A DNA stretch of 64,000 bases, from the NCBI GenBank assembly GCA_963820435.1, contig CAWGAC010000008.1, forward strand, positions 6,497 through 70,496. Direction: 5' to 3'. This document shows, piece after piece, positions 39,527 through 55,869 of the stretch. The notes under the pieces are model-generated. The model did not search any database, was not told the DNA's origin, and saw only the letters and a list, made by a program, of their open reading frames with translations. The stretch is from an uncultured Spirochaetota bacterium (GTDB taxonomy: Bacteria; Spirochaetota; Spirochaetia; SZUA-6; Fen-1364). Within the stretch, counting starts at the first letter, position 1, and each line of letters starts with the position of its first letter. The position numbers and the translations under genes are program-made.

Positions 39527-40693
39527 GTGAACTATTTCCTGACCGAAGACCAGAAAATGATCAAGGACCTGGCCGCGCAGATCGCGCGTGAGAAGATCGC
39601 GCCCATCGCGGCCGAGCTGGACGAGTCAGGGGAGTTCCCCTGGGAGGTCGTGAAGACCCTCGCCAAGTCCGACCTCTTCCGCGTCTTCATCCCCACGGAG
39701 TACGACGGGCTGGGCGGCGGCATGTTCGAGATGTGCCTCGTCGTGGAGGAGCTCTCCCGCGCCTGCAGCGGCATCGCGCTCGCCTACGCGGCCTCGGGCC
39801 TGGGCACCATCCCGATCATCCTGTTCGGCAACGAGGAGCAGAAGAAGAAATACCTGCCGCGGCTCGCCGCCGGGGAGATCCTCGCCGCCTTCGGGCTCAC
39901 CGAGTCCGGCGCGGGAAGCGACGCCGCCGCCATCAAGACCACCGCGAAGCCGGACGGCGACTCCTACGTCATCAACGGCACCAAGCAGTGGATCACCAAC
40001 GGCGGCGAGGCGTCCATCTACACCGTCGTCGCCCTGACCGATCCCGCACGGGGCGTGCGCGGCTCCTCCACCATCCTCGTGGAAAAGGACCACCCGGGTT
40101 TCACCTTCGGCAAGAAGGAAAACAAGATGGGCATCCGCGCCTCCGCCACCCGCGAGCTCGTGTTCCAGGACTGCCGCGTGCCGAAGACAAACCTCCTCGC
40201 CAAGGAAGGCATGGGCTTCCTCGTGGCCATGAAGACGCTCGACCAGTCGCGGCCCGGCGTGGCCTCCCAGGCGCTGGGCATCGCCGCAGGGCGCCCTGGA
40301 CAAGGCCGTCGAATACTCGCGGGAGCGGCGCCAGTTCGGCAAGCCCATCTCCGCCTTCCAGGGCATCCAGTTCATGCTCGCCGACATGGCCACGCAGGTG
40401 GAGGCGGCGCGCGCCCTGACCTATGCGGCGGCGCGCAGCATCGACGCGGGGAGAAGGACGTGTCGCGGCTGTCCGCCATGGCCAAGGTGTTCGCCTCCGA
40501 CACGGCCATGCGGGTCACCACGGACGCCGTGCAGATCCTCGGCGGCTACGGCTACATGAAGGAGTACCCGGTCGAGAAGATGATGCGGGACGCGAAGATC
40601 ACCCAGATCTACGAGGGCACCAACCAGATCCAGCGCGAGGTGATCGCCCTCGGGCTGATCAAGGAAAGCGTGCGCGGAGCGGCAAAGGTCTGA
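39527..40693 (+). CDS. Acyl-CoA (butyryl-CoA-type) dehydrogenase (2 frameshifts near 40280 and 40445)
   Basis: [34 protein letters not shown] and [10 protein letters not shown]; GAGGAGG RBS. Confidence 0.92.
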
Positions 40694-40703
40694 GGAGCCC
40701 GTC

Positions 40704-41504
40704 GTGAAGGTCATCGTCTGCATCAAGCAGGTGCCTGACACCACCAATGTGCGCATCAACCCCGAGACCAACACCCTCGTGCGGGAGGGCGTGCAGTCCA
40801 TCATCAACCCCTTCGACGTCTACGCCATCGAGGAGGCGCGTGCGCCTCCGGGAGAAGCACGGCGGCACCGTGACGGTGATCACCATGGGGCCGCCCCAGG
40901 CCGCGGAGGCGCTGCGGGAGTCGATCAGCCTCGGCGCGGACAATGCCTTCCTCGTGTCCGACAGGGCATTCGCCGGGCGCCGACACGCTGGCAACGGCGT
41001 ACGCGCTGGCCTGCGCGGTCCGGAAGCTCGGCGGCGCGGACATCATCCTCATGGGCAGGCAGGCCATCGACGGCGACACGGGCCAGGTGGGGCCGGGCGT
41101 CGCGGAAAACCTGGGCATCTCCCACGTCACCGACATCAGGAAGATCGAAGAGATCGTCGACGGCCGTATCGTCGTCGAGCGGCTGCTGGAGGAGGGGTAC
41201 GCACGGCTGGCGGCCCGGCTCCCGGTCGTGCTGACCGTCGTGAAGGAGATCAATATTCCGCGCCTGCCGTCGCTCAAGGGCAAGATGGCGGCGAAGAAGG
41301 CGGAGATCCCGGTGCTGAAGGCCGCCGACATCGGCGCGGACGCGGAGCGCCTCGGGCCTGAACGGCTCGCCCACCCAGGTGATGAAGATCTTCACGCCGC
41401 CCAAGCCTTCCGGAGGCAAGAAGTTCACCGGCGAACCGGCTGAAACCGTGGGCGCCCTGCTCGCGGAGCTCGCCGCGGCCGGCATCACCATCCGGAAGAA
41501 ATAA
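40704..41504 (+). CDS. etfB: Electron transfer flavoprotein beta subunit (frameshifted)
   Basis: VCIKQVPDT, INPFDVYAIE, DTLATA, GRQAIDGDTGQVG and PRLPSLKG. Confidence 0.9.
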
Positions 41505-41514
41505 GGACACGCAC

Positions 41515-42736
41515 ATGGACCCGATCCGCGTCATCGTTCAGAACTGCGTCGGCTGCAGCCTTTGCGTCAAGTCGTGCCCCTACGATGCCATCGCTTTGTC
41601 GGGCCCGGTCGGGGCGAAGCTGGACAGGCCGACCGCCGTCATCGACCTGGGCGAAGTGCACGCTTTGCGGCGCCTGCGTGGAGGCGTGCAAGCGCTACCA
41701 GGCCATCGTCATCACGCGCCGGACGTTCAAGGGACAGGACATAAAGAAGTATACCGGGCATCTGCCATCCTGGCCGAGCACCGGCGCGGAAAGCTCGGCA
41801 GCGTCGTGCCGGAGATCATCGGCGCCGCGCGCGAGCTGCAGAAGGAGCTCTCCGCGCCGGTGAGCGCCGTGCTGGTGGGAAGCGGGGTGAGGAAGTTCAC
41901 CGACGAGCTCCTCTCGCTACGGCGTGGACGAGGTGTGGATGATCGACAACCCCGGTATCGGGGATTTCGACGAGGACGTGCACGCCGAGCTTGTTGCGGA
42001 GATCCTCATGGAGAAAAAGCCCGAGATCTTCCTCGGCGGCGGCACGGTGGTGGGCCGTTCCCTTCTGCCCCGGGTGGCGGCAAAGATACTCACCGGGCTC
42101 ACGGCGGACTGCACGGAGCTCAGCATCGATCCGGCCACCATGCTCCTGCGCCAGACCCGGCCCGCGTTCGGCGGAAACATCATGGCCACGATCCTCACGC
42201 AGAACCACAGGCCCCAGATGGCCACGGTGCGTCACAAGGTGATGACGCCCGCGGAAAAGGTCGCCAGCCCCAGGGGCACGGTGATCGAGCTCAACCACAT
42301 TCCCGTGCCTCCGTCGAAGCTCGAGTTCCTGGAGTTCGTGGAGGAGAAGTCGGCAACGGTGAACCTCGTGGAGGCGGACGTGATCGTGTCGGGCGGCCGC
42401 GGCATCAAGGACCCGAAGAACTTCGAGCTCATCGAGAAGCTCGCCCTGGCCACGGGCGGCGCCGTGGGCGCCTCCCGCGCCGCGGTGGACGCGGGCTGGA
42501 TTCCCTACTCGCATCAGGTGGGCCAGACCGGGAAGACCGTGAAGCCCAAAGTGTATATCGCCTGCGGCATCAGCGGGGCAATCCAGCACCTGGCCGGCAT
42601 GAAGGGCGCCGACATGATCGTTGCCATCAACTCCGACCCCAGTGCGCCGATCTTCGACGTGGCCCATTTCGGGATCGTGGGAGACCTGTTCAAGGTCGTG
42701 CCGGAGCTGATGAAGAGGCTGGAGAACGGAACGTAG
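41515..42736 (+). CDS. etfA: Electron transfer flavoprotein alpha subunit with N-terminal 2x[4Fe-4S] domain (frameshifted)
   Basis: [12 protein letters not shown] and [12 protein letters not shown]; GLTADC, RPAFGG, VSGGRG, QVGQTG and GISGAIQH. Confidence 0.9.
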
Positions 42737-42914
42737 CAGGGGCGGGAGCTCCCAATCCCGTCAGCCGTCTACTCGACCCCGTTTCGTTGCCTTTGCGCTT
42801 CTCCCTTTCATTCACGACCTGCATAAAATTGCATTGTCAGTCTGCGAAGGTTGCTAGTATCTTTTATCGCAACGACAATCGCCTTTGATCCACATGTCCT
42901 AGAGGAGGTTCGCT

Positions 42915-43094
42915 ATGGAGGATTTGCCCGCTCAGCTCCTGCCCGTGACCCTGCATCTGGACTTTTCCATTTTCAAGATCGCCCTGCCAAATCTCATCGT
43001 CGGGATCGTGCTCATCGTCATCTTTTTCGCGGCCGCGTGGGGCCGCCTGCCGCGTTTCCTCGAGCATGGCCGCGACCCCGGGAAGGAAGATTGA
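42915..43094 (+). CDS. Small single-TM protein (59 aa), first gene of the cytochrome b module; absent from the ORF track
   Basis: AGAGGAGGT RBS, then MEDLPAQLLPVTLHLDFSIFKIALPNLIVGIVLIVIFFAAAWGRLPRFLEHGRDPGKED*; stop is 1 bp before the cytochrome b ATG. Confidence 0.75.
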   Translation: MEDLPAQLLPVTLHLDFSIFKIALPNLIVGIVLIVIFFAAAWGRLPRFLEHGRDPGKED

Positions 43095-43095
43095 G

Positions 43096-43692
43096 ATGAA
43101 CCTGACAAAAAAGCTGCAGCGCTCGATCCAGAAGAACTTGACAATGGAAGACGCACTGCCGACAAAGATGCCGGTGTACGTCAATTCGCTCGCCTATATG
43201 TTCGGCGTGACCACCCTGTCCGCGCTCGTGCTTCTTGTGGTGACGGGAATGATCCTGGCCATCTTCGGACCGGACTGGTATCACGTTTCCCGGGCCGGAC
43301 GCTTTTTCAACTCCCTTCATTTCTGGAGCGCCCAGGCATTTTTCGGCTCCATGCTCCTGCACATGGCCACCAAGTTCCTGCTCGGCGCGTGGCGTGACGG
43401 ACGCTGGAAGACGTGGATGATCGGCGTCCTCACCTTCGGCATCGCGATCTTCAGCGGCTTTACCGGATACCTGTCCGCGTCGAACTGGTCTTCCCAGTGG
43501 CACGCCGTGCAGGCCAAGGACGCCATGAACGCAATGGGCATCGGCGCGTTCTTCGTCACGACCAACTTCAGCCAGACCCTCACTCTCCACGTGGCCTTTC
43601 TCCCATTCCTGGTCATCATCCTGGTGGTCATCCACCTCGCCTTCATCAGGCACGAGAGCCCTGTGAAGCCCTATCCGTCGAAGGGGAAATGA
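43096..43692 (+). CDS. Cytochrome b6-type (4-TM, N-terminal) cytochrome b subunit
   Basis: Four heme-ligand His: LHFW..LLHM (14 apart) and LHVA..VIHL (15 apart, b6-type spacing). Also TG in helix A, W..G and FTGYL. Confidence 0.85.
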   Translation: MNLTKKLQRSIQKNLTMEDALPTKMPVYVNSLAYMFGVTTLSALVLLVVTGMILAIFGPDWYHVSRAGRFFNSLHFWSAQAFFGSMLLHMATKFLLGAWRDGRWKTWMIGVLTFGIAIFSGFTGYLSASNWSSQWHAVQAKDAMNAMGIGAFFVTTNFSQTLTLHVAFLPFLVIILVVIHLAFIRHESPVKPYPSKGK

Positions 43693-43694
43693 GA

Positions 43695-44657
43695 ATGAGC
43701 AAAACATCAGACGAGAATTTGCGCGGGGTTCCCACGAAGCCCTACGATCTGATCCGGGAAGGCTTGATCGTGGTAGGTTTCCTGGCGGTCGTCGTGGTCG
43801 TGCTGGCCATACTCTTCCGCCCGCCGGACTATCCCCCGGTCCGGGGTGAGGATGTCGCCACACGCCAGCCCATCGCCTACCTGGCGACCTGCGTCGACAT
43901 CCTGGCGGGAAACAGCGGCCTGCAGGACTACGGCCCCCCGTACAATGCGGACACGACCAACTCGATGAAGGTGCTGGGCATTGCTCCCATTTCCTGGTTC
44001 GGCGTGAGGCAGGAGCTGGATCCTTCCAAGGATTTCGTCCTGGCGCCGCTGGCGCGTGTCGCAGTGATGAACAAGGAGGTGGCGGGCGCGCTGAAGACCT
44101 GGAACGCCGCCTCGGATGACTCCAAGGCTGCCTGGACAAAGGCGTACGCCGATGCGCTTGACAAGGCGACCGTCAAGGACGGCGCGGTCCAGATGGCTGC
44201 CGGCCAGTATGGCCCGGTGCCCGTCATGATGAACGGAATGCTCGACCTGGGGAAGGCGGGTCTGCTCGAAGGCGCTCTGATGAGCAACGAGCGCCAGCCC
44301 TACACCCTCGATAACAGCCGGGCGCTCCTTTTCTTCCAGGAAGACGTGGACGCGAGCGTGGCGGATACCCAGGACATGAAGGGCGAACAGTGGGGCATCA
44401 CACACGAAGTAGGCAACCGCCCGGGCCCCTGGTGGCTCTGGCCCTATGCCATCTGGTACCAGATCCCCGTGTTCGCCAAGAATCCGAACGCCGATCTGAT
44501 CGTGGGCCTCATGATGCTTGCTCTCTTCCTCATCCTTTTCTTCATGCCCTTCATTCCCATACTCAACAGGCTCCCGCGCTGGATCGGCTTCTACAGGATC
44601 GTGTGGCGCGACTGGTACGCGCGGCAGGAAGGATCGGGCGGGAAAAGCAAGAAGTGA
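43695..44657 (+). CDS. Cytochrome b6f subunit IV-like membrane protein with a large periplasmic insertion
   Basis: N-terminal PYDL...TM...PPD, about 200-aa soluble region without CxxCH, then PGPWWLWPY in the PEWY-equivalent position and C-terminal TM helices. Confidence 0.55.
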   Translation: MSKTSDENLRGVPTKPYDLIREGLIVVGFLAVVVVVLAILFRPPDYPPVRGEDVATRQPIAYLATCVDILAGNSGLQDYGPPYNADTTNSMKVLGIAPISWFGVRQELDPSKDFVLAPLARVAVMNKEVAGALKTWNAASDDSKAAWTKAYADALDKATVKDGAVQMAAGQYGPVPVMMNGMLDLGKAGLLEGALMSNERQPYTLDNSRALLFFQEDVDASVADTQDMKGEQWGITHEVGNRPGPWWLWPYAIWYQIPVFAKNPNADLIVGLMMLALFLILFFMPFIPILNRLPRWIGFYRIVWRDWYARQEGSGGKSKK

Positions 44658-44686
44658 CGCGTCGCTGATACATCGAGCGCTCGTGG

Positions 44687-44729
44687 AGAGCCCGCATTCG
44701 CGCATACGCGCGGAAGCGGGCTCTTTTTT
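44687..44729 (+). terminator. Rho-independent terminator
   Basis: AGAGCCCGC...GCGGGCTCT stem followed by a T-run. Confidence 0.75.
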
Positions 44730-44796
44730 GGTGGTGCGCATTCTTGCGCGCGTGGTGTTGAATGGCCAGTATTGACAAGATGAATGCAATAAACGC

Positions 44797-44817: not shown

Positions 44818-44887
44818 AGGGAGCCCCGACGGCAGAGAAATGCAGGCGGCTCCGCGGTATCTCTCCAATCGAGAAGGAGTGCGCGTC

Positions 44888-45568
44888 ATGAACGTTATCG
44901 AGCTGAAGGCTGTGAAGAAGGACTACCCCCTGGGGGCCACAACCGTCCATGCCCTGCGCGGCGTTGACCTGGCCATCCGGGAGGGGGATTTTATTTCCAT
45001 TGTCGGCCCGTCAGGGAGCGGCAAGACGACGCTCCTCAACATCATCGGATGCATCGACTCCGCCACCGAAGGAGTAGTGAAGATCCATGAGAAGGACATC
45101 ACGACGCACTCGGATCGCGAGCTCACCGACCTGCGCCTGCACACGATCGGGTTCATCTTCCAGACGTTCAATCTCATCCCGGTGCTCACCACCCGTGAAA
45201 ACGTGGAGTTTCCCCTTCTCCTCATGAAAAAGGAAAGCATCAGGAAAAGAGAGATCCGCGAGCGCGCGGAAAAGCTCATCGAAGAGGTAGGGCTCAAGGA
45301 CCAGATCAACCACAAGCCGTACGAGCTCTCCGGCGGCCAGCGCCAGCGCGTGGCCATTGCCCGCGCGCTGGTCACCCGTCCGGCCATCGTGCTTGCGGAT
45401 GAGCCGACGGCCAACCTCGACTCGGAAACAGGAGACATGATCCTGAAGCTCATGAAGGAGCTGAACATCCTGGAAAAGACCACCTTCATCTTCTCGACGC
45501 ATGACCCCGACATATTGAAATACGCAAATGGCGTCGTGAAGATCAAAGACGGGCTCATGGCAAACTAG
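44888..45568 (+). CDS. ABC transporter ATP-binding protein (LolD/MacB family)
   Basis: GPSGSGKT, LSGGQRQRVAIARAL and LADEPTANLD. Confidence 0.93.
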   Translation: MNVIELKAVKKDYPLGATTVHALRGVDLAIREGDFISIVGPSGSGKTTLLNIIGCIDSATEGVVKIHEKDITTHSDRELTDLRLHTIGFIFQTFNLIPVLTTRENVEFPLLLMKKESIRKREIRERAEKLIEEVGLKDQINHKPYELSGGQRQRVAIARALVTRPAIVLADEPTANLDSETGDMILKLMKELNILEKTTFIFSTHDPDILKYANGVVKIKDGLMAN

Positions 45569-45577
45569 GGACGGATC

Positions 45578-47092
45578 ATGTTTATCCTGAAGATCGCCTG
45601 GAGGAGCCTCCTCCGGCACAAGGCCAAGAGCATCATCATCGGCACCATTCTTTTCCTCGGCGCGCTCATCATGACGCTCGGCAATGCCACCGCCATCGGC
45701 ATGCAGCGCGGCGTCGAAAAAAACATGGTCGAAAGCTTTACCGGGCACATCATCCTCGTCTCCGACGAGGAGACGAAGGACAATGTCCTTTTCACGCCGC
45801 TGGCAAAGCCGCTGAAGATCCTGAAGGACTACGAGAAGATCCGTTCCGTGCTGGACAAGCAGGACTTCATCAAGGGCTACCTCCCCATGACCAGGGGTGG
45901 TGTCGCGATCCTGGGCGGCCAGGAGATGGATTTCATGCTCACCTTCGGGTGCAATTTCGACGAGTTCCAAAGGGTGTTTGGGAGCCCCGTCACGGCCGTC
46001 GAGGGAAAGGTGCTGCACAATGGTGACCACGGGCTCCTGATAAACGTGAACGGCAGAAAGACCCGCTACAAGAACGCGGGCTACTGGCTCGTTCCCGAGG
46101 GGGGCGGGCTGAACAGGGACAACCTCACGGACGAAGCAAAGAAAGAGGAGGACCGGCTCGAAGTCAAAAGCTCCCTGGCGCTCGAAGGGTTCGGTGAGCC
46201 GAACTCGACGAACAAAGACATCCCGGTAAAAGGGGTCGTGCGATTCAGATCGCTCAACTCCCTCATGCAGGAAGCCACCTTCATGGACATCGAAACTTTC
46301 CGGGAGATCTTCGGATACTATACCGCGCGGGATATCGTCCAGAAGCTTCCTCCGAAAGAGGAAGCGCTGATGGGCGCCAGCGAGGACGCGCTCTTCGGGG
46401 GCGGTGACATCTACTCGGCCGGGACCAGCGGTACGTCGGTTGCCGAGCTGGAAAACAGGATCAAAACTGAGCCGAAAGTCACACGGGTGATCGACTTTGA
46501 CACGGCGGCGTACAACTATGTCACCATCCTCCTGAAGCCGGGCCAGGACTTGAACGCCTCTGTGGAAAAAATGAAGAGGATCGCCCGGGAGGACAACCTG
46601 CCGGTAAAGGTCCTGAGCTGGAAAAAGGCCACGGGCCAGGCCGCGCAGATCTCCGACATACTCCAGATGATCATCACGGTGTTCGTGATCCTCCTGTTCT
46701 TCGTCGCCATCATCATCATCATGAACACGCTGAGCATGAACGCGCTCGAACGGACCGAGGAGTTCGGCATGATGCGCGCCGTGGGTGCGCGCAAGAGCTT
46801 CATCACCAAGATGTTCCTCGCAGAGACATTCTCTCTCTCGTGCATCTTCGGCGGCATCGGCATCTTCGCGGGCGTCATCGTCACCTGGATCATCCGGCCT
46901 CTCCGCATCGGCTCGGGGGGAAACGAAATCTTCGAGCTGCTTTTTGGCGGCGAAGTCTTCCAGCCGACCCTGGGTTTTGCCGGGCTGGTGACCGGCATCA
47001 TCGGGCTCGCCATCGTCACGGTGCTGGCGGTCGTCTACCCCGTTGTCGTGGCGCGAAAGATCACGCCGCTGGACGCGATCAACCGCCACTAA
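45578..47092 (+). CDS. ABC permease (FtsX/MacB family)
   Basis: IAWRSLLRHK N-terminus, large periplasmic domain, ERTEEFGMMRAVG and C-terminal TMs. Confidence 0.88.
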   Translation: MFILKIAWRSLLRHKAKSIIIGTILFLGALIMTLGNATAIGMQRGVEKNMVESFTGHIILVSDEETKDNVLFTPLAKPLKILKDYEKIRSVLDKQDFIKGYLPMTRGGVAILGGQEMDFMLTFGCNFDEFQRVFGSPVTAVEGKVLHNGDHGLLINVNGRKTRYKNAGYWLVPEGGGLNRDNLTDEAKKEEDRLEVKSSLALEGFGEPNSTNKDIPVKGVVRFRSLNSLMQEATFMDIETFREIFGYYTARDIVQKLPPKEEALMGASEDALFGGGDIYSAGTSGTSVAELENRIKTEPKVTRVIDFDTAAYNYVTILLKPGQDLNASVEKMKRIAREDNLPVKVLSWKKATGQAAQISDILQMIITVFVILLFFVAIIIIMNTLSMNALERTEEFGMMRAVGARKSFITKMFLAETFSLSCIFGGIGIFAGVIVTWIIRPLRIGSGGNEIFELLFGGEVFQPTLGFAGLVTGIIGLAIVTVLAVVYPVVVARKITPLDAINRH

Positions 47093-47106
47093 TCGAGGAA
47101 ACTGAA

Positions 47107-48888
47107 ATGAAACGCATTGGACGATTTTTCATGACCCGGATACGCAGCGCGCGCGTTGTATCCAAGATCGCTTTCCGCAACCTCATCCGGCAGTTCCGGC
47201 GGAACGTGCTGCTTTCCGCGGGCATTGCCATCGGCATGTGCATCCTGGTCGTGACATCCTCGTTCACGAACGGCCTCACCGACATTCTCTTCAACAAGAT
47301 GCTCGTGTACATGAGCGGACACATCAAGGTGGTCATGGACGAGTACACCACGCGGCGCAGCGACGTGATCAGGGACACCGACCGGTTCATCAAGGCCATC
47401 AAGGCGAACGTGGACGGGATCAAGGAGATCGATCAGGCCGTAAGCGCCTTCGGCCGGGCGGTCGGCAATGGGAAAACCGGACTCGTCGCCCTGGTGGGCG
47501 TTGCCCGAGACTCGAATTTCTATCAGGACACGGACCTCGAGTCCGGCAATGTGCGCGACATATACAAACCGGACATCTTTCCCGGCATCCTTCTGTACAA
47601 GAACGCGGCCAGGGAGCTGAACGTCGGGTTGAACGACATCGTTACCGTGCGGTTCCAGACCGTCTACGGACAGTCGCAGGCGCCCAAGTACAAGGTGGTC
47701 GGGCTTATCCCCTCGTCGAATATGTACATGGACGTGGCTGCATTCGTGGACAGGGAAACGCTCCGCCAGCAGCTGAACATGAAGCCCAATGAATCACTCG
47801 GGCTTCAGGTCGTGACGGCGTATCCTCAGGACGCGCAGAAGGTGATTGAGCAGGCAAACAAGCTGCAGAAAGCGCTCGCCCCGGGCGCTGCCGGGGTCAA
47901 GGCGGTTCTCCGCGCGCAAGGCCGGCAGGCTAACGCCGACGTTTTTGCCCTGCGGCTGGAGACCGGCCCGGACGCCCTGGCACTTGTCCGGAACAATCTC
48001 CAGTTCGTCAAGGGAGACATCAGGGGCCTCTTGAAGGACAAGACCGGGATCATCCTGACCCAGCCCCTGGCCCAGTCTCTCGGAGCCGATGTCGGCACCC
48101 GGATCGATTACCGCTATGTCCCTCTCAATGCCCCCGATCCGGTCGAGACGCAGTTTGTCGTGACGGGGATAGTGAAAACCGTTTCACCGTTTGCCGAGGC
48201 CACCGCCTTCGCCCACGAGGACTCCTTCTACAAGACCTACTTCTGGAATATCCCCCGGGACCCCGCGCGGGTGGCTGAGGATGCGCCGCTCTTCAAGGCC
48301 CTGCTTCCCGAATGGGAGATGCTGGCGCGAAGCAAGAACACGGACGAGGCGACAAAGAAGATACGGCTCCTCAACAGGGAGGCGTGGAAGGGCGCGCGGG
48401 TGGATGTCCAGACCATGTTCGAGAATGCCAGCGCCGTGGTCGATCTGCAGAAAGGCCTGAACACAATCTCGATCGTCGCCGTCCTGATCCTCTTCTTCGT
48501 GATCCTCATCGGGGTCGTGAACACCATGCGCATGAGCATCCGCGAACGCACCCGGGAGATTGGAACCAACCGGGCAATCGGGATGCAGAGGTCCGACGTC
48601 CGTTCGGTCTTTGTCATGGAAATCGTTTTTCTCGCCGTGTTCGCGTGCATCGCGGGCATCGGGCTGTCATACGGGCTCATGGCCCTGCTCGGCGTGCCCA
48701 CGTTCGACCTCAAGGACAATCCGTTCAGCATGTTCTTCGTGAACAAGCATATCTACTTCGTTCCGACTGTCGGGGCGATCATCGGCAACTTCTTCATCAT
48801 CGTGATCGTGTCCTTCCTCATTGCGTTTTTCACCGCGCGCCGCGCCGCAAAGCTTCGGGTTGCGGATGCGCTGCGGCACTTTGAATAG
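47107..48888 (+). CDS. ABC permease (FtsX/MacB family) with extra-long periplasmic region
   Basis: IAFRNLIRQ and ERTREIGTNRAIG; about 400-aa periplasmic segment. Confidence 0.88.
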   Translation: MKRIGRFFMTRIRSARVVSKIAFRNLIRQFRRNVLLSAGIAIGMCILVVTSSFTNGLTDILFNKMLVYMSGHIKVVMDEYTTRRSDVIRDTDRFIKAIKANVDGIKEIDQAVSAFGRAVGNGKTGLVALVGVARDSNFYQDTDLESGNVRDIYKPDIFPGILLYKNAARELNVGLNDIVTVRFQTVYGQSQAPKYKVVGLIPSSNMYMDVAAFVDRETLRQQLNMKPNESLGLQVVTAYPQDAQKVIEQANKLQKALAPGAAGVKAVLRAQGRQANADVFALRLETGPDALALVRNNLQFVKGDIRGLLKDKTGIILTQPLAQSLGADVGTRIDYRYVPLNAPDPVETQFVVTGIVKTVSPFAEATAFAHEDSFYKTYFWNIPRDPARVAEDAPLFKALLPEWEMLARSKNTDEATKKIRLLNREAWKGARVDVQTMFENASAVVDLQKGLNTISIVAVLILFFVILIGVVNTMRMSIRERTREIGTNRAIGMQRSDVRSVFVMEIVFLAVFACIAGIGLSYGLMALLGVPTFDLKDNPFSMFFVNKHIYFVPTVGAIIGNFFIIVIVSFLIAFFTARRAAKLRVADALRHFE

Positions 48889-48898
48889 GAGACTGAAT

Positions 48899-49672
48899 AT
48901 GAGACAGAGATTCTTGGGGATCGCCGTGGGACTTCTTGTGCTGGCCCCGGCGCTCTGGGCGACCCCCTCGGTCCAGGAGATCATCGACTACATCGACATC
49001 AATTACGAAATCCGCAGCGACTTCACCGCGCAGGCCAAGATCACCACCCGGGACCCTGAGCAGGGGACCAAGGTCATCGAGAGCGTTCTGTACCGGCGGG
49101 ACCGCGACGATGCGTTTCTCATCGTCATGGCTGATCCCGAAACCGACCGCGGCAATGGGTACCTTCGCGTGGCGGACAACATGTGGATGTATCGCCGGAC
49201 CACCCGCACCTTCACGCACATAGGCCGTGACGAGAAGATCGGAGGCTCCAACGCGAGCGCGGGAGATTTCGAGACGCGGAAGTTCAAGGAGCTGTACAAG
49301 CCCTCGCTTGACGCAAACGGCAACGAGATCATCGCCATACAGGCCCTGGGGGGCGGAAAGATCCCCGTGTACAGGGTCGAGGTGACGGCCAAGGTCAATG
49401 ACGTCAAGTACCCCCGGCTGGTGATGTGGCTGACGCAGGACAAGTACCTCGAGCTCAAGCGCGAGTGCTATGCCCTCTCCGGCACGCTCATGGAAACGGA
49501 CCTCTACACCAACTACAAGGAGATCGACGGCCGCTACGTGCCGCTTCTGCAGAAATTCACGGATGAGGTGGAAAAGGGGAGGACCTCGCTGCTGGAAATC
49601 AACGGCGTTACCTTCAGCAAGGTGGACGATTACAAGTTCGACAAGTCGTATCTCGAGAGCTTGAGCAAGTAA
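48899..49672 (+). CDS. Outer-membrane lipoprotein-sorting (LolA-like) protein
   Basis: Signal peptide; DRGNGYLR..NMWMY, GSNASAGD and P..F..SYLE pattern. Confidence 0.8.
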   Translation: MRQRFLGIAVGLLVLAPALWATPSVQEIIDYIDINYEIRSDFTAQAKITTRDPEQGTKVIESVLYRRDRDDAFLIVMADPETDRGNGYLRVADNMWMYRRTTRTFTHIGRDEKIGGSNASAGDFETRKFKELYKPSLDANGNEIIAIQALGGGKIPVYRVEVTAKVNDVKYPRLVMWLTQDKYLELKRECYALSGTLMETDLYTNYKEIDGRYVPLLQKFTDEVEKGRTSLLEINGVTFSKVDDYKFDKSYLESLSK

Positions 49673-52256: not shown

Positions 52257-53528
52257 ATGCCAGAGCGCGCTCACCACGCCCCGCCAAGACCCCTGGTCGT
52301 CATCGGCACGGACGCCCTCCCCCGGCTGCAGCAATTCTGCCGGGAGACGGGCCGCCGTCGTCTGCTCCTTGTCGCGGACTCCCGCACGTATCACGCCGCA
52401 GGGGAGGCAGTGGAGAGCGCGCTCCGCGGGATCGGCTGCGAGATAAGGGCGATCGTCTTCACGGGGGGCGAGGTGGTTGCGGACGCCCCTCACGTGCTTC
52501 GCGTCCTGCTTGCCGCCGACGGCGTCGACCTGACATTCCTCGCCGTCGGCTCGGGTACGATCACGGACATCACGCGGTTCGTCAGTCACAGGACCGGTTG
52601 CCCGTTCATTTCTGTTCCGACGGCGCCCTCGGTGGACGGATATACATCGAGGGGAGCGCCTTTGATCGTCGACGGGGTGAAAACCACCGCGAATGCCCAG
52701 GCGCCCCTCGCCATTTTCGCCGACCTCGCCACCTTGTGTGCGGCGCCGCAGCGGATGATCGCGGCCGGATTCGGCGACATGCTGGGGAAGCACACGTCGG
52801 TGGCGGACTGGCGGCTGGCCCACCTGCTCTGGGACCTGCCCTTCGACGAGTCCATCGCGGAAAGGACCCTCCGCGCCGTGCGGGGATGCGAGGAGCGGGC
52901 AGGGGAGATAGCCGCGGCATCCGCGGACGGCGTGCGCAGCCTCATGGAGGCCCTGATCGAATCAGGGTTCTGCATGCTGGATTTCGGGAGCTCCCTGCCG
53001 GCCTCCGGATCGGAGCATCATTATTCCCACTACTGGGAGATGAAGCTGCTGAGGGAGGGCCGGCCCGCGATCCTGCACGGCGCGAAGGTCGGTGTGGCCG
53101 CGATCCTCGTGGCCGGACTCTACGAAAGGATCGGGCGGATATCACGGGAGCAGGCCGCGGCGTTATTGAAGGACTCCCGTCTGCCCGGGCGCGAAGAGGA
53201 GATGCAGCGCATTCGCTCGGCCTATGGACCTCTGGCGTCCGACGTCATTGCCTCCCAGGCGCCGTTCCTGGACATGGGCGAGCCGGACTACGCGCGGTTG
53301 AAACAGAAGATCCAGGACCGGTGGGGAGAAATCCAGGAAATCGCCCGGCAGGTTCCCGGCCCCGCGCGCATCACGGAGCTGCTCCAGGCCGCAGGAGGCC
53401 CGGTGAGCGTGGCGGCGCTGGGTCTGACCGAAGAGGAGCGGGTCCTTGCCGAGACCGTGAGTCACTACCTTCGCCCGCATTTCACGATACCCAAGCTCAT
53501 GCGGGTCCTCGCCGCTTCCTCTCAGTAG
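52257..53528 (+). CDS. sn-glycerol-1-phosphate dehydrogenase (AraM/EgsA family)
   Basis: GSGTITD, PTAPSVDGY, GFGD, SGSEHHYSH and LHGAKVG. Confidence 0.85.
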   Translation: MPERAHHAPPRPLVVIGTDALPRLQQFCRETGRRRLLLVADSRTYHAAGEAVESALRGIGCEIRAIVFTGGEVVADAPHVLRVLLAADGVDLTFLAVGSGTITDITRFVSHRTGCPFISVPTAPSVDGYTSRGAPLIVDGVKTTANAQAPLAIFADLATLCAAPQRMIAAGFGDMLGKHTSVADWRLAHLLWDLPFDESIAERTLRAVRGCEERAGEIAAASADGVRSLMEALIESGFCMLDFGSSLPASGSEHHYSHYWEMKLLREGRPAILHGAKVGVAAILVAGLYERIGRISREQAAALLKDSRLPGREEEMQRIRSAYGPLASDVIASQAPFLDMGEPDYARLKQKIQDRWGEIQEIARQVPGPARITELLQAAGGPVSVAALGLTEEERVLAETVSHYLRPHFTIPKLMRVLAASSQ

Positions 53529-54550
53529 CCTTCGGCCCCTTCGGCGACCTGGGTCCTCGTCACTTTTGCCCGGAAGAATCTGAACACGATGAACTGGTAG
53601 ACGATGACTATGGGAACGAAGATCGCGGCAACGATGCTCATGAGCTTCAAGGTGTAAGGACCTGATGAAGAGTTGTAGATCGTGAGGCTCGCCGCGGCAT
53701 CAAGGCTGGAGGGAATGAGATTCGGGAACAACCCGACGAGCCCCGTGGCGATCACGAGCAGGATCGTCGCGCAGGATGCGGCAAATGCCCCGAGGGGCCG
53801 GCCCCGGGAGTGCGCGATCCGCACCCCGAGCAGGGCCGCGACGGCGAGCACGGGCACGACGATCCAGAGCGGCCGGGCCAGGTAGTTGTCATACAGCCGT
53901 GTCGCGAATCCGGTCAGCACGAGGAATGCCGCCGCGACAACGAGAACCAGGAACCAGAGGATTCCCGCAAGCCTGCCGGTCCGCTCGCCCAGCTCCCCGT
54001 CCGTCTTGTATCTGAGCCAGAGGGCGCCGTGCTGGAGAAACAGGAGGACGAAGAGAAGCGCCGTGAGGAGGCCGTAGGGGTTGAAGAGCATGAAGAAGCT
54101 TCCCCGATAGCCGGTGAGGTCGATCGGCAGGCCTTTGAATATGTTGCCGAATCCCAGCCCGAGCACGAGCGGCGCCGTGAAGCTGGAGACGGCCAGCACC
54201 CAGTCCCACACGGACCTCCACCTCGGCGCGTCGTGCTTGCCGCGCAGCTCGATGGCCGCTCCGCGCGCGATGAGTGAGAAGAGGATCAGCAGCATGGGGA
54301 GGTAGAGGAAGCTGAACATCGACGCGTAGGTTGCGGGAAAGGCCGCGAACGTGGCGCCCCCGGCCGTGATGAGCCAGACTTCGTTGCCGTCCCACACCGG
54401 ACCGATGGCGGCGAGGGCGACCTTCCTGTCCAGCTCGTCCCGGGAAAGGAAGTTGCGCAGCATGCACGCGCCGAAGTCGAAGCCGTCCAGCATGAAGTAG
54501 ACGGCCCACAGCACACCCCACAGGACGAACCAGAGCGTTTGCAGCGCCAT
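53522..54550 (-). CDS. cydB: Cytochrome bd ubiquinol oxidase subunit II
   Basis: LDGFDFG, PVWDGNEVWL, FAAFP..Y and SLTIYNSSS..YTL. Confidence 0.95.
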   Translation of the reverse strand: MALQTLWFVLWGVLWAVYFMLDGFDFGACMLRNFLSRDELDRKVALAAIGPVWDGNEVWLITAGGATFAAFPATYASMFSFLYLPMLLILFSLIARGAAIELRGKHDAPRWRSVWDWVLAVSSFTAPLVLGLGFGNIFKGLPIDLTGYRGSFFMLFNPYGLLTALLFVLLFLQHGALWLRYKTDGELGERTGRLAGILWFLVLVVAAAFLVLTGFATRLYDNYLARPLWIVVPVLAVAALLGVRIAHSRGRPLGAFAASCATILLVIATGLVGLFPNLIPSSLDAAASLTIYNSSSGPYTLKLMSIVAAIFVPIVIVYQFIVFRFFRAKVTRTQVAEGAEGY

Positions 54551-54561
54551 TCCTTCCCTCC

Positions 54562-55869
54562 TCAGTCCTCTGTCCTGCGGGCGTACTTGGCGAGCAGAAA
54601 GACGTCCACCACGGCAAGGGCGCTGTAGATGACAAGGAAACAGATGAGCGAGCCCAGGACGTCACCCGGCGTGATGGCCCGCGAGGCCGCGTCCGCCGTC
54701 TTGAGCAGCCCGTACACGATCCACGGCTGCCGGCCGATCTCCGCGACGATCCACCCCAGCTCGCTGGCCAGGTAGGGCAGGACAAGGGCAACGGTCATGA
54801 TCCAGAGAAACCAGCGTTTCGAAGCGAGCCTGTCCCTCCAGGAAAGAACAGCGGCGACCACCGCCAGCAGCACGAAGAGGAAACCAAGGGCCACCATCAG
54901 GCGGAATCCGAGGAAGCTCACCATCACCGGTGGCCGGTCGCCGGGAGGGAACTCCTCCAGCCCCTTCACCGTGGCGTTGACGTCGTGGTAGGCAAGAAAG
55001 CTGAGTCCTTTGGCGATGGGCAGCGCCTCGATGATGTTGCGCTGCGCCCCTGGGTCGGGGAGCTGGAGCAGATAGAAGGGGGCGCCGGCCTCGGTCTTCC
55101 ACTGCGATTCGATTGCGGCAAGCTTCGTCGGCTGGAACTTCGCCACCTGCAGGCCCGACAGGTCTCCGGCAACGATGATCAGCACCGAGGAGGCGACGGC
55201 GAACGTGGCGGCGAGCCGGAAAGATCTCTTGAACAATTGGGGATTTCTCCCGCGGAGGAGATTGATCGCGGAGATCCCCATGATGAAAAACGCGCTCAAG
55301 GTGTACGCGGCCATGATCACGTGGAAGAACTTGATCCACGCGTACGGATTCCAGATGAGGGCCCCGAAATCGACCAGCTGCGCCTTGCCGCCCGCCAGGA
55401 CATAGCCGCGCGGCTTCTGCATCCATCCGTTGGCCAGCAGGATCCACAATGCGGAAAACGTGCTCGCCGAGGCCACCACCCACATGATCGCCGCATGGGC
55501 TCCGCGTGAGACCCTCTTCCAGCTGAACACCCACAAACCGATGAAGGTGGACTCCAGGAAAAAAGCCACCGTTGCCTCGATGGCGAGGGGCGCTCCGAAG
55601 ATGTCACCGACGAACTTCGAGTATTCCGCCCAGTTCATTCCGAACTGGAACTCCAGCGTGAGGCCCGTGACCACGCCCACGGCGAAGTTGATGAGCAGCA
55701 GCCTGCTCCAATACCTCGTCATGCGCAGCCAGGTCTCGTCCCCGGTCCTGGCGTAGCGGGTTTCCATGAAAGCCACCAGCATGCTGAGACCCAGGGTGAG
55801 GGGGACGAACAGGAAGTGGAAGATCGCAACCGCGGCAAACTGTATCCGGGAGAGTGCCTCGACGCCCAT
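54562..55869 (-). CDS. cydA: Cytochrome bd ubiquinol oxidase subunit I (short Q-loop)
   Basis: FHFLFVP, EFQFGMNW, FFLES, QPTKLAAIE and EIGRQPW. Confidence 0.95.
   Translation of the reverse strand: MGVEALSRIQFAAVAIFHFLFVPLTLGLSMLVAFMETRYARTGDETWLRMTRYWSRLLLINFAVGVVTGLTLEFQFGMNWAEYSKFVGDIFGAPLAIEATVAFFLESTFIGLWVFSWKRVSRGAHAAIMWVVASASTFSALWILLANGWMQKPRGYVLAGGKAQLVDFGALIWNPYAWIKFFHVIMAAYTLSAFFIMGISAINLLRGRNPQLFKRSFRLAATFAVASSVLIIVAGDLSGLQVAKFQPTKLAAIESQWKTEAGAPFYLLQLPDPGAQRNIIEALPIAKGLSFLAYHDVNATVKGLEEFPPGDRPPVMVSFLGFRLMVALGFLFVLLAVVAAVLSWRDRLASKRWFLWIMTVALVLPYLASELGWIVAEIGRQPWIVYGLLKTADAASRAITPGDVLGSLICFLVIYSALAVVDVFLLAKYARRTED

Follow-up and report, generated by a model that had tools for sequence, protein, structure and literature searches.

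Complex III and the b6f complex have cytochrome b and subunit IV as their catalytic core, and the textbook function of this core needs a Rieske protein. What could such a pair do without one? The question is raised by three genes, called g1, g2 and g3 here, at positions 42915-44657 of a 64,000-nucleotide stretch of contig CAWGAC010000008.1 from an uncultured Spirochaetota bacterium. This whole stretch is referred to as the window. The three tightly packed + strand open reading frames (ORFs) form an intact operon. We propose that the trio is probably a Rieske-less complex derived from cytochrome b6 and subunit IV and acting as a quinone-linked transmembrane electron conduit, in which the N-side (negative-side) quinone site is kept, the P-side (positive-side) pocket is remodelled and no Q cycle operates. 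Its support, as established here from sequence comparisons, lies in the homology of both subunits, the conservation of the ligands, the unity of the operon, the absence of the usual partners and a wide distribution.

Database matches and ligands identify g2 as a b6-type di-haem cytochrome b, with scores of 49.7 bits against PF13631 (Cytochrom_B_N_2; E 5e-13, cut-off 27) and 36.6 bits against PF00033 (E 5e-9, cut-off 27.2). It also matches Protein Data Bank (PDB) chains of actinobacterial QcrB and of cyanobacterial and plastid b6, with E values from 7e-10 to 1e-5. The haem-ligand histidines form the pairs H85/H99 (spacing 14) and H174/H189 (spacing 15), as in b6; residue numbers refer to a 208-aa ORF discussed below. 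An earlier note on this DNA had reported the four ligands and their spacing, and they prove to be at least 95% conserved among 78 family members. The same 78 sequences share an invariant arginine five residues past the last histidine, after a conserved H-x3-V (the b6-type H-x4-R), as well as a conserved WRxGRxxTW motif. The cysteine of the haem-ci motif CxGG in helix A is missing in either possible register, as had been noted: the window reads Y-M-F-G-V and the consensus of the 78 sequences Y-x-F-G. The position is variable across the family, and of CxGG only the first glycine is kept. HMMER alignments of g2 with QcrB require gaps of about 12 residues in the cd region, which fits the shortened cd loop proposed previously. 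Against the ExtP model NF040969, g2 reaches 58.6 bits for an equivalog cut-off of 290 and is therefore not a member of that family.

The second subunit, g3, gave no sequence match in Pfam, NCBIfam or the PDB, either as a single sequence or as a profile of 85 sequences. Its family counts at least 986 matches in a database clustered at 90%, and 605 representative clusters at 50% identity. In order from the N terminus, the family conserves PYDLxxE, a transmembrane (TM) helix, SPD, YGPPY, DFVLxPL, YGPVP and QWG, and in its C-terminal part PGxWWLWPYxxxYQIP, NADL, a second TM helix and PFIPxLNxxPR followed by WRDWY. We compared this family by hhalign with a canonical alignment of subunit IV and the cytochrome b C-terminal region, built from genomes that also carry the trio. 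With residues 53-237 of g3 left out, the two profiles aligned at 93.6% (E 2e-7), collinearly over 91 columns that span helix E, the ef segment and helix F. For full-length g3 the value was 54-57%, in the ef/helix F segment. Taken by themselves, the first 60 residues aligned to FPNxLL and helix E at 74.5%, and the C-terminal part reached 77%. Controls with reversed profiles, 30 column shuffles and an unrelated TM family did not exceed 2.8%.

Two hydrophobic helices are found in g3, at residues 25-43 and 271-289, with helix E placed at about 21-42 and helix F at about 268-290; helix G is therefore missing. The subunit IV plan of the earlier note is thus upheld by profile comparison, with one C-terminal TM helix and not several. 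Its counterpart of the PEWY motif, read as PWWL, is the Trp-rich PGxWWLWPY, and no conserved acidic residue is present there. The Qo pattern P-[EDVAP]-W-[YF] does not occur in g3, where the hhalign register has N243-R244-[PGPWWL]-W251-P252.

Natural fusions also tie the two proteins together. They join g2 to g3 in two phyla, in Thermoleophilia (L044, L046) and in Ktedonobacterales (L058, L066, L082). Canonical cytochrome b was repeatedly fused with subunit IV in a like manner (PMC5600118). A Foldseek search with an AlphaFold model of the fusion L044, computed from an alignment of the fusions and g3 rows, gave as top matches b6 (TM-score 0.57 on the target) and the long cytochrome b of bc1/bcc, while hydrogenase cytochrome b appeared only as a weak match (E 0.25). 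A mixed alignment of fusions, cytochrome b and g3 sequences was dropped for folding because, in about 70 g3 rows, MAFFT had aligned some 115 residues with the cytochrome b half. From the profile comparisons and the fusions, g3 is best read as a very divergent subunit IV homologue with a large new domain in its ef loop.

This inserted domain, of about 185 aa (residues ~53-240), is mostly alpha-helical and predicted to be periplasmic. The earlier note had described it as a periplasmic domain of about 200 aa inserted before the PEWY equivalent and devoid of CxxCH. The AlphaFold model of the window g3, based on 85 sequences, has a predicted local distance difference test score (pLDDT) of 83.6 and a predicted template modelling score (pTM) of 0.74. 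It starts with a TM helix and continues with the domain itself (residues ~53-227), which comprises some ten helices and one beta-hairpin; short amphipathic helices and the second TM helix follow. Foldseek found no fold match for it in the PDB (best E 2.1, probability 0.03). The single cysteine of g3 is not conserved, and the protein has no CxxCH. Within the insert, the 85 sequences conserve neither Cys nor His nor Met, and the polar or aromatic positions that never vary are occupied by Tyr, Trp, Gln and Asp. Among the invariant aromatic residues of g3 are Y81, Y85, W149, Y174, W249, W251, Y253 and Y257. An iron-sulfur cluster, copper or a His- or Met-ligated haem in the insert is therefore unlikely.

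This result bears on the proposal, made in the earlier note, that the insert replaces the Rieske arm as a redox carrier. Such an arm would have to work through a non-covalent cofactor or a Tyr/Trp radical relay. The insert does sit at the ef loop, the docking place of the Rieske head in bc complexes, and g3 offers many invariant Tyr and Trp residues. However, the lack of conserved cofactor ligands among the 85 sequences leaves no place for an iron-sulfur, copper or His-/Met-haem centre, and no known redox domain is related to the insert in fold or sequence. We consider a redox arm of this kind quite improbable.

The operon is organised as a self-contained unit, as had been claimed: the ORFs stand where they were first read, and the unit is kept while its neighbours vary. 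All three genes are intact in comparison with a relative (L003), whose products share 81-93% identity with the window proteins. Ribosome-binding sites (RBS) precede g1 (GAGGAGG) and g3 (GAAGGGG), and the ATG of g3 overlaps the stop codon of g2 (ATGA). The g2 start adopted in the earlier note, an upstream ATG at 43066 that gives the 208-aa ORF (43066-43692), had to be revised. The true start is most likely the ATG at 43096, which lies directly 3' of the g1 stop codon and is preceded by an RBS-like GGAAGGAAG (read from the sequence); the resulting 198-aa form is the version on 20 public contigs and agrees with L003. Of the signals proposed before, the RBS and the terminator hairpin stand. The hairpin had been overlooked by a pattern scan because its loop exceeds the length which the scan permits. 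The promoter is a match by consensus alone and at chance level, with one site found for 0.8 expected. g1 has one TM helix (residues 22-40), flanked by a conserved P-N motif on its N-terminal side and by R-x-P on its C-terminal side. Small upstream ORFs of this kind, falling into two sequence clusters, accompany 72 of the 81 trio loci that we compared. The idea that g1 supplies the missing helix G of subunit IV was not supported (hhalign 1.2%), in a comparison that has little power either way. The features of the operon and of its surroundings are collected in the table.

Table. Positions in the window of the trio, its candidate signals and neighbouring genes.
Feature	Position	Strand	Basis or remark
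sigma-70-like promoter candidate, TTGTCA-18-TATCTT	42834..42863	+	consensus match; ~50 nt 5' of g1
g1, 59 aa, single-TM accessory subunit	42915..43094	+	ORF, GAGGAGG RBS
g2, four-helix di-haem cytochrome b, b6-like, 198 aa	43096..43692	+	PF13631/PF00033 and PDB matches
g3, divergent subunit IV homologue, 322 aa from ATG 43689	43689..44657	+	profile comparison
intrinsic terminator, nested GC-rich hairpin then TTTTTT	44685..44732	+	RNAfold -33.3 kcal/mol
acyl-CoA dehydrogenase, EtfB, EtfA	39527-42900		frameshifted versus intact L003 homologues
MacB/FtsX-type ABC exporter (ATPase and two FtsX permeases), LolA-like/TP_0789-like lipoprotein	44840-49672		downstream of the trio
cydB (342 aa), cydA (435 aa), cytochrome bd oxidase	53522-55869	-	intact

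To describe the surroundings of the trio, we clustered every ORF located up to 6 kb from the 81 loci in either direction. g1, g2 and g3 alone are conserved as families. The next commonest families are generic kinases, ATP-binding cassette (ABC) ATPases, major facilitator superfamily transporters and P-type ATPases, each present at no more than 20 loci. The flanks of the trio are unrelated in a Rectinemataceae metagenome-assembled genome (MAG) and in a marine proteobacterial contig. The absence of a Rieske or cytochrome c gene from the unit, stated from the window, is borne out: g1, g2 and g3 contain no CxxCH, and a Rieske-like motif was found at none of the 81 loci, in a search reaching 6 kb to either side. 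A gene for a multihaem cytochrome c lies near the trio at a single one of them. No cydAB genes were found within 6 kb at any of the 81 loci. The functional link to the bd oxidase suggested earlier is not supported, the oxidase being 9 kb away in the window and never within 6 kb elsewhere.

The same analysis addresses a link to the electron-transfer flavoprotein (Etf), also suggested by the neighbouring genes of the window. The trio could be a new type of Etf:quinone oxidoreductase, leading electrons from acyl-CoA dehydrogenase and EtfAB to the quinone pool. On the strand of the trio, about 180 nt separate the upstream EtfA gene from g1; this EtfA bears an N-terminal ferredoxin domain, and EtfAB genes are again found within 6 kb of the trio in a Spirochaetia MAG (locus L054, genome G034). 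These two loci are, however, the only ones among the 81 with Etf in this range. The relative with a 92% identical g3 has its Etf genes about 4 kb from the trio, with small genes and an IS110 transposase in between. A promoter-like site separates the Etf genes from the trio in the window, which is weak evidence, and the trio has no cytoplasmic domain on which Etf could dock. This function appears very improbable.

We then looked for partners in the rest of the host genome. The assembly comprises 5.33 Mb in 33 contigs, and its relatives are Spirochaetota MAGs. Its single cytochrome b is g2 itself. PF00355 has two matches, a small ferredoxin of the Suf operon and a Rieske-FAD reductase fusion; no bc-type Rieske protein was found in this assembly, which is rated 75% complete. 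No reading frame of the assembly has two or more CxxCH motifs, and single CxxCH motifs are at chance level (149, versus 127-175 for permuted motifs). The host has ResB and CcsA, a haem O synthase and two MenA-like prenyltransferases, and cydAB is in the window. A quinone pool is expected from the prenyltransferases and the bd oxidase. An aa3-type operon encodes COX2, COX3, COX1, SCO1/SenC and a 253-aa fusion of a DUF2231 membrane domain with a monohaem cytochrome c (host assembly G000, C8:244200-249300; L110 8242-13282, - strand), about 195 kb from the trio. The host should therefore respire oxygen via a cytochrome c oxidase. Within the assembly, no recognisable quinol:cytochrome c reductase was found, either of the bc type or of the alternative complex III type.

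Across genomes, the co-occurrence of the trio with Rieske domains does not discriminate. Generic Rieske domains are present in 49 of 50 trio genomes (the exception is G034), and such counts carry no information here, since many unrelated enzymes contain a domain of this kind. The canonical cytochrome b C-terminal domain (PF00032) is present in 24 of the 50 genomes and absent from 26, a count of absences that is limited by the failure of PF00032 to recognise actinobacterial QcrB.

The respiratory equipment of the host brings in another explanation, in which the trio is, for bacteria that lack a bc complex, a Rieske-less replacement for complex III and passes electrons from menaquinol via a membrane-anchored cytochrome c to the aa3-type oxidase. 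It would suit a host that has a cox operon, haem O synthase and ResB/CcsA and lacks a canonical cytochrome b; the lack of any frame with two or more CxxCH argues against an alternative complex III there. Within the order (92 genomes), 19 genomes carry the trio and 18 of these have COX1; the host's own genus, with 21 genomes, accounts for 17 of the carriers. The sister family f2 (24 genomes) is complementary, with COX1 and a nearby canonical cytochrome b and no trio. Across phyla, COX1 is present in 42 of the 50 trio genomes. Several observations oppose this function. Two genomes of the same family, 96-99% complete (G101, G102), have the same type of COX1 and neither the trio nor any cytochrome b. 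The canonical cytochrome b C-terminal domain accompanies the trio in the 24 genomes mentioned above, and 80 of the 81 loci have no linked cytochrome c gene. As long as Qo has no high-potential centre, quinol would find no favourable acceptor for its first electron. Finally, the association with COX1 in the order concerns mostly one genus and may reflect phylogeny only. A replacement of complex III is the main rival of the conduit and rather unlikely in our view. A broader version would make the trio a third type of quinol:cytochrome c oxidoreductase beside the bc complex and alternative complex III, feeding the aa3 oxidase in aerobic or microaerobic Spirochaetota, Dehalococcoidia and others that lack both, with the new domain as the place where the membrane-anchored cytochrome c docks and reacts; we hold it to be unlikely.

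Three side observations concern these genomes. The host has a second, distant haem-copper oxidase subunit I (PF00115, E 1e-59) at C11:55338-56654 (L111), in a 781-aa open frame. In f2 (G051-G074; for example G063 C1:2754283-2754834), the match to the canonical cytochrome b N-domain is split in two in all 24 genomes, with about 54 nt between the pieces; the second piece often contains one or two in-frame TAG codons (some TAA), which may be a framing artefact or a real peculiarity. In G034, neither COX1 nor any Rieske domain was found. If reasonably complete, this genome is the clearest example of a carrier that lacks both a Rieske domain and a haem-copper oxidase.

How widespread is the trio? 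A scan with one genome per species found it in at least 568 species genomes, so that its recurrence is not due to chance. Carriers belong to Spirochaetota, Dehalococcoidia, Anaerolineae, Ktedonobacteria, Actinomycetota (many Acidimicrobiia), Thermoleophilia, Bacillota, Gemmatimonadota, NC10, Binatia, Dormibacterota, and Alpha- and Gammaproteobacteria. Cultured representatives are Alicyclobacillus tolerans, A. mengziensis, Oricola nitratireducens and a Kitasatospora strain. Two separate copies are found in an Acidihalobacter MAG (L043/L047) and in a Bacillota MAG (L067/L069), showing that the trio can be duplicated or acquired twice. In a tree built with the canonical cytochrome b of the same genomes and that of the sister spirochaete family, the trio cytochrome b forms one clade on a very long branch (Shimodaira-Hasegawa-like approximate likelihood ratio test, SH-aLRT, 100). 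Phyla are mixed inside this clade, which points to lateral transfer.

The earlier note had expected homologues under generic labels, and rightly so: most are unnamed, and a few records bear a generic cytochrome b or b6 label. RefSeq calls g3 a "hypothetical protein" and g2 a "cytochrome b N-terminal domain-containing protein". JGI labels g2 as the cytochrome b subunit of ubiquinol- or quinol-cytochrome c reductase, and one UniProt entry names g3 "Cytochrome B6". In the literature, we did not find a description of a Rieske-less cytochrome b family of this kind.

The favoured reading, a quinone-linked conduit, can be put in structural terms. The trio would be a three-subunit inner-membrane haem protein descended from the Rieske/cytochrome b core, without Rieske protein, c-type cytochrome or haem ci. 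We infer that the complex contains haem and reacts with quinone. g2 would bind two b haems, one near each membrane face. Helices E and F of g3 would pack on g2, and the domain of about 185 aa would cap the outer (P) face, at the position of the ef loop and PEWY motif of the Qo site in bc complexes. g1 would be a single-helix accessory subunit. As no high-potential acceptor stands beside the Qo pocket, the bifurcated quinol oxidation of a Q cycle cannot take place. The retained N-side site would be where menaquinone or menaquinol reacts; its putative marks are the H-x4-R that follows helix D and the PYDLxxE preceding helix E. PYDLxxE corresponds to FPN(D/E)LL in subunit IV. Electrons would cross the membrane via the two haems, to or from an aromatic-rich P-side pocket under the new domain. 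A periplasmic or membrane substrate may react in this pocket.

Several points weigh against this reading. PF00032 gives no match to g3. A Foldseek search of the PDB with the model of g3 alone did not find subunit IV, with a query that does not test the two-helix part. Because of these two negative results, the homology of g3 rests on profile comparison, synteny and fusions. The fusion model has a pLDDT of 71.9, and its cytochrome b half is weaker (pLDDT 40-80), with only six sequences there. The proposed N-side quinone binding rests on few conserved residues. Finally, a conduit without a known donor or acceptor is an incomplete mechanism.

Among known systems, PetB/PetD of the b6f complex and QcrB/QcrC of Bacillota are the nearest in layout. 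They share with the trio a split four-helix di-haem cytochrome b with 14/15 His spacing, followed by a gene for helices E and F in the same gene order. The H-x4-R after helix D and an acidic motif before helix E are also common to them. Unlike these complexes, the trio has no Rieske protein, cytochrome f/c, haem-ci cysteine, PEWY/PDWY motif or helix G. Its ab and cd loops are shorter, and it has gained the ef-loop domain and the 59-aa single-helix subunit. Its cytochrome b stands on a separate long branch from the canonical ones.

Rieske-less relatives of b6 have been recognised elsewhere. ExtP (NF040969), of selenite and tellurite reduction operons, is a b6-like four-helix protein that acts, like the trio in our proposal, as a quinol-linked conduit without Rieske protein. 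However, it passes electrons to periplasmic multihaem cytochromes c and has no g3-like subunit. The same differences apply to the Cbc-type modules of Geobacter, Rieske-less conduits made of cytochrome b and multihaem cytochrome c. In the cytochrome b561 family of E. coli, including the superoxide:quinone oxidoreductase CybB, and in the cytochrome b of hydrogenase-1, two b haems link a quinone site to a reaction at the outer face. These proteins belong to a different family, and the likeness to the trio is functional only; we use it as a working analogy.

Dibrova et al. 2017 (PMC5600118) listed cytochrome b subfamilies of obscure function, among them K, of small cyanobacterial proteins, and H, of large proteins containing cytochrome b domains. 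Like the trio, both are cytochrome b homologues outside the classical bc1 and b6f complexes. Subfamily K lost a haem ligand (PMC5600118), whereas g2 keeps all four histidines. The g2-g3 fusions (~520-560 aa) would resemble subfamily H, with which they may overlap, a comparison made by description only. Classifications of cytochrome b (PMC5600118, PMC4122944) find subunit IV via COG1290 or PF00032, COG1290 being used in PMC5600118. Both list subfamilies of obscure function and do not describe the architecture of the trio.

The trio represents a deep and widespread clade in which the di-haem core is retained, together with helices E and F, and the whole Qo/Rieske side is replaced by a domain of unknown fold. 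Its characterisation would add a new type of respiratory membrane module and assign a function to a "hypothetical protein" of RefSeq. It also bears on models in which the bc complex was assembled from a stand-alone cytochrome b. Moreover, the trio may explain how quinol and oxidase are connected in some aerobes that lack a bc complex.

Some features of the neighbouring genes may be added. The MacB/FtsX-type exporter downstream of the trio is conserved next to it in the close relative only. The cydAB genes, 9 kb downstream of the trio, are found likewise in the L003/L004 relative and not at other loci. The acyl-CoA dehydrogenase, EtfB and EtfA genes of the window are frameshifted, with segment identities of 69-100% to the L003 homologues: EtfB is spread over four frame segments and EtfA over two, and the dehydrogenase is out of frame over an internal stretch. 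Two genes in another part of the host genome, SufD and SufS, look frameshifted in the same way. These frameshifts are probably indel errors of the assembly and not signs of pseudogenes.

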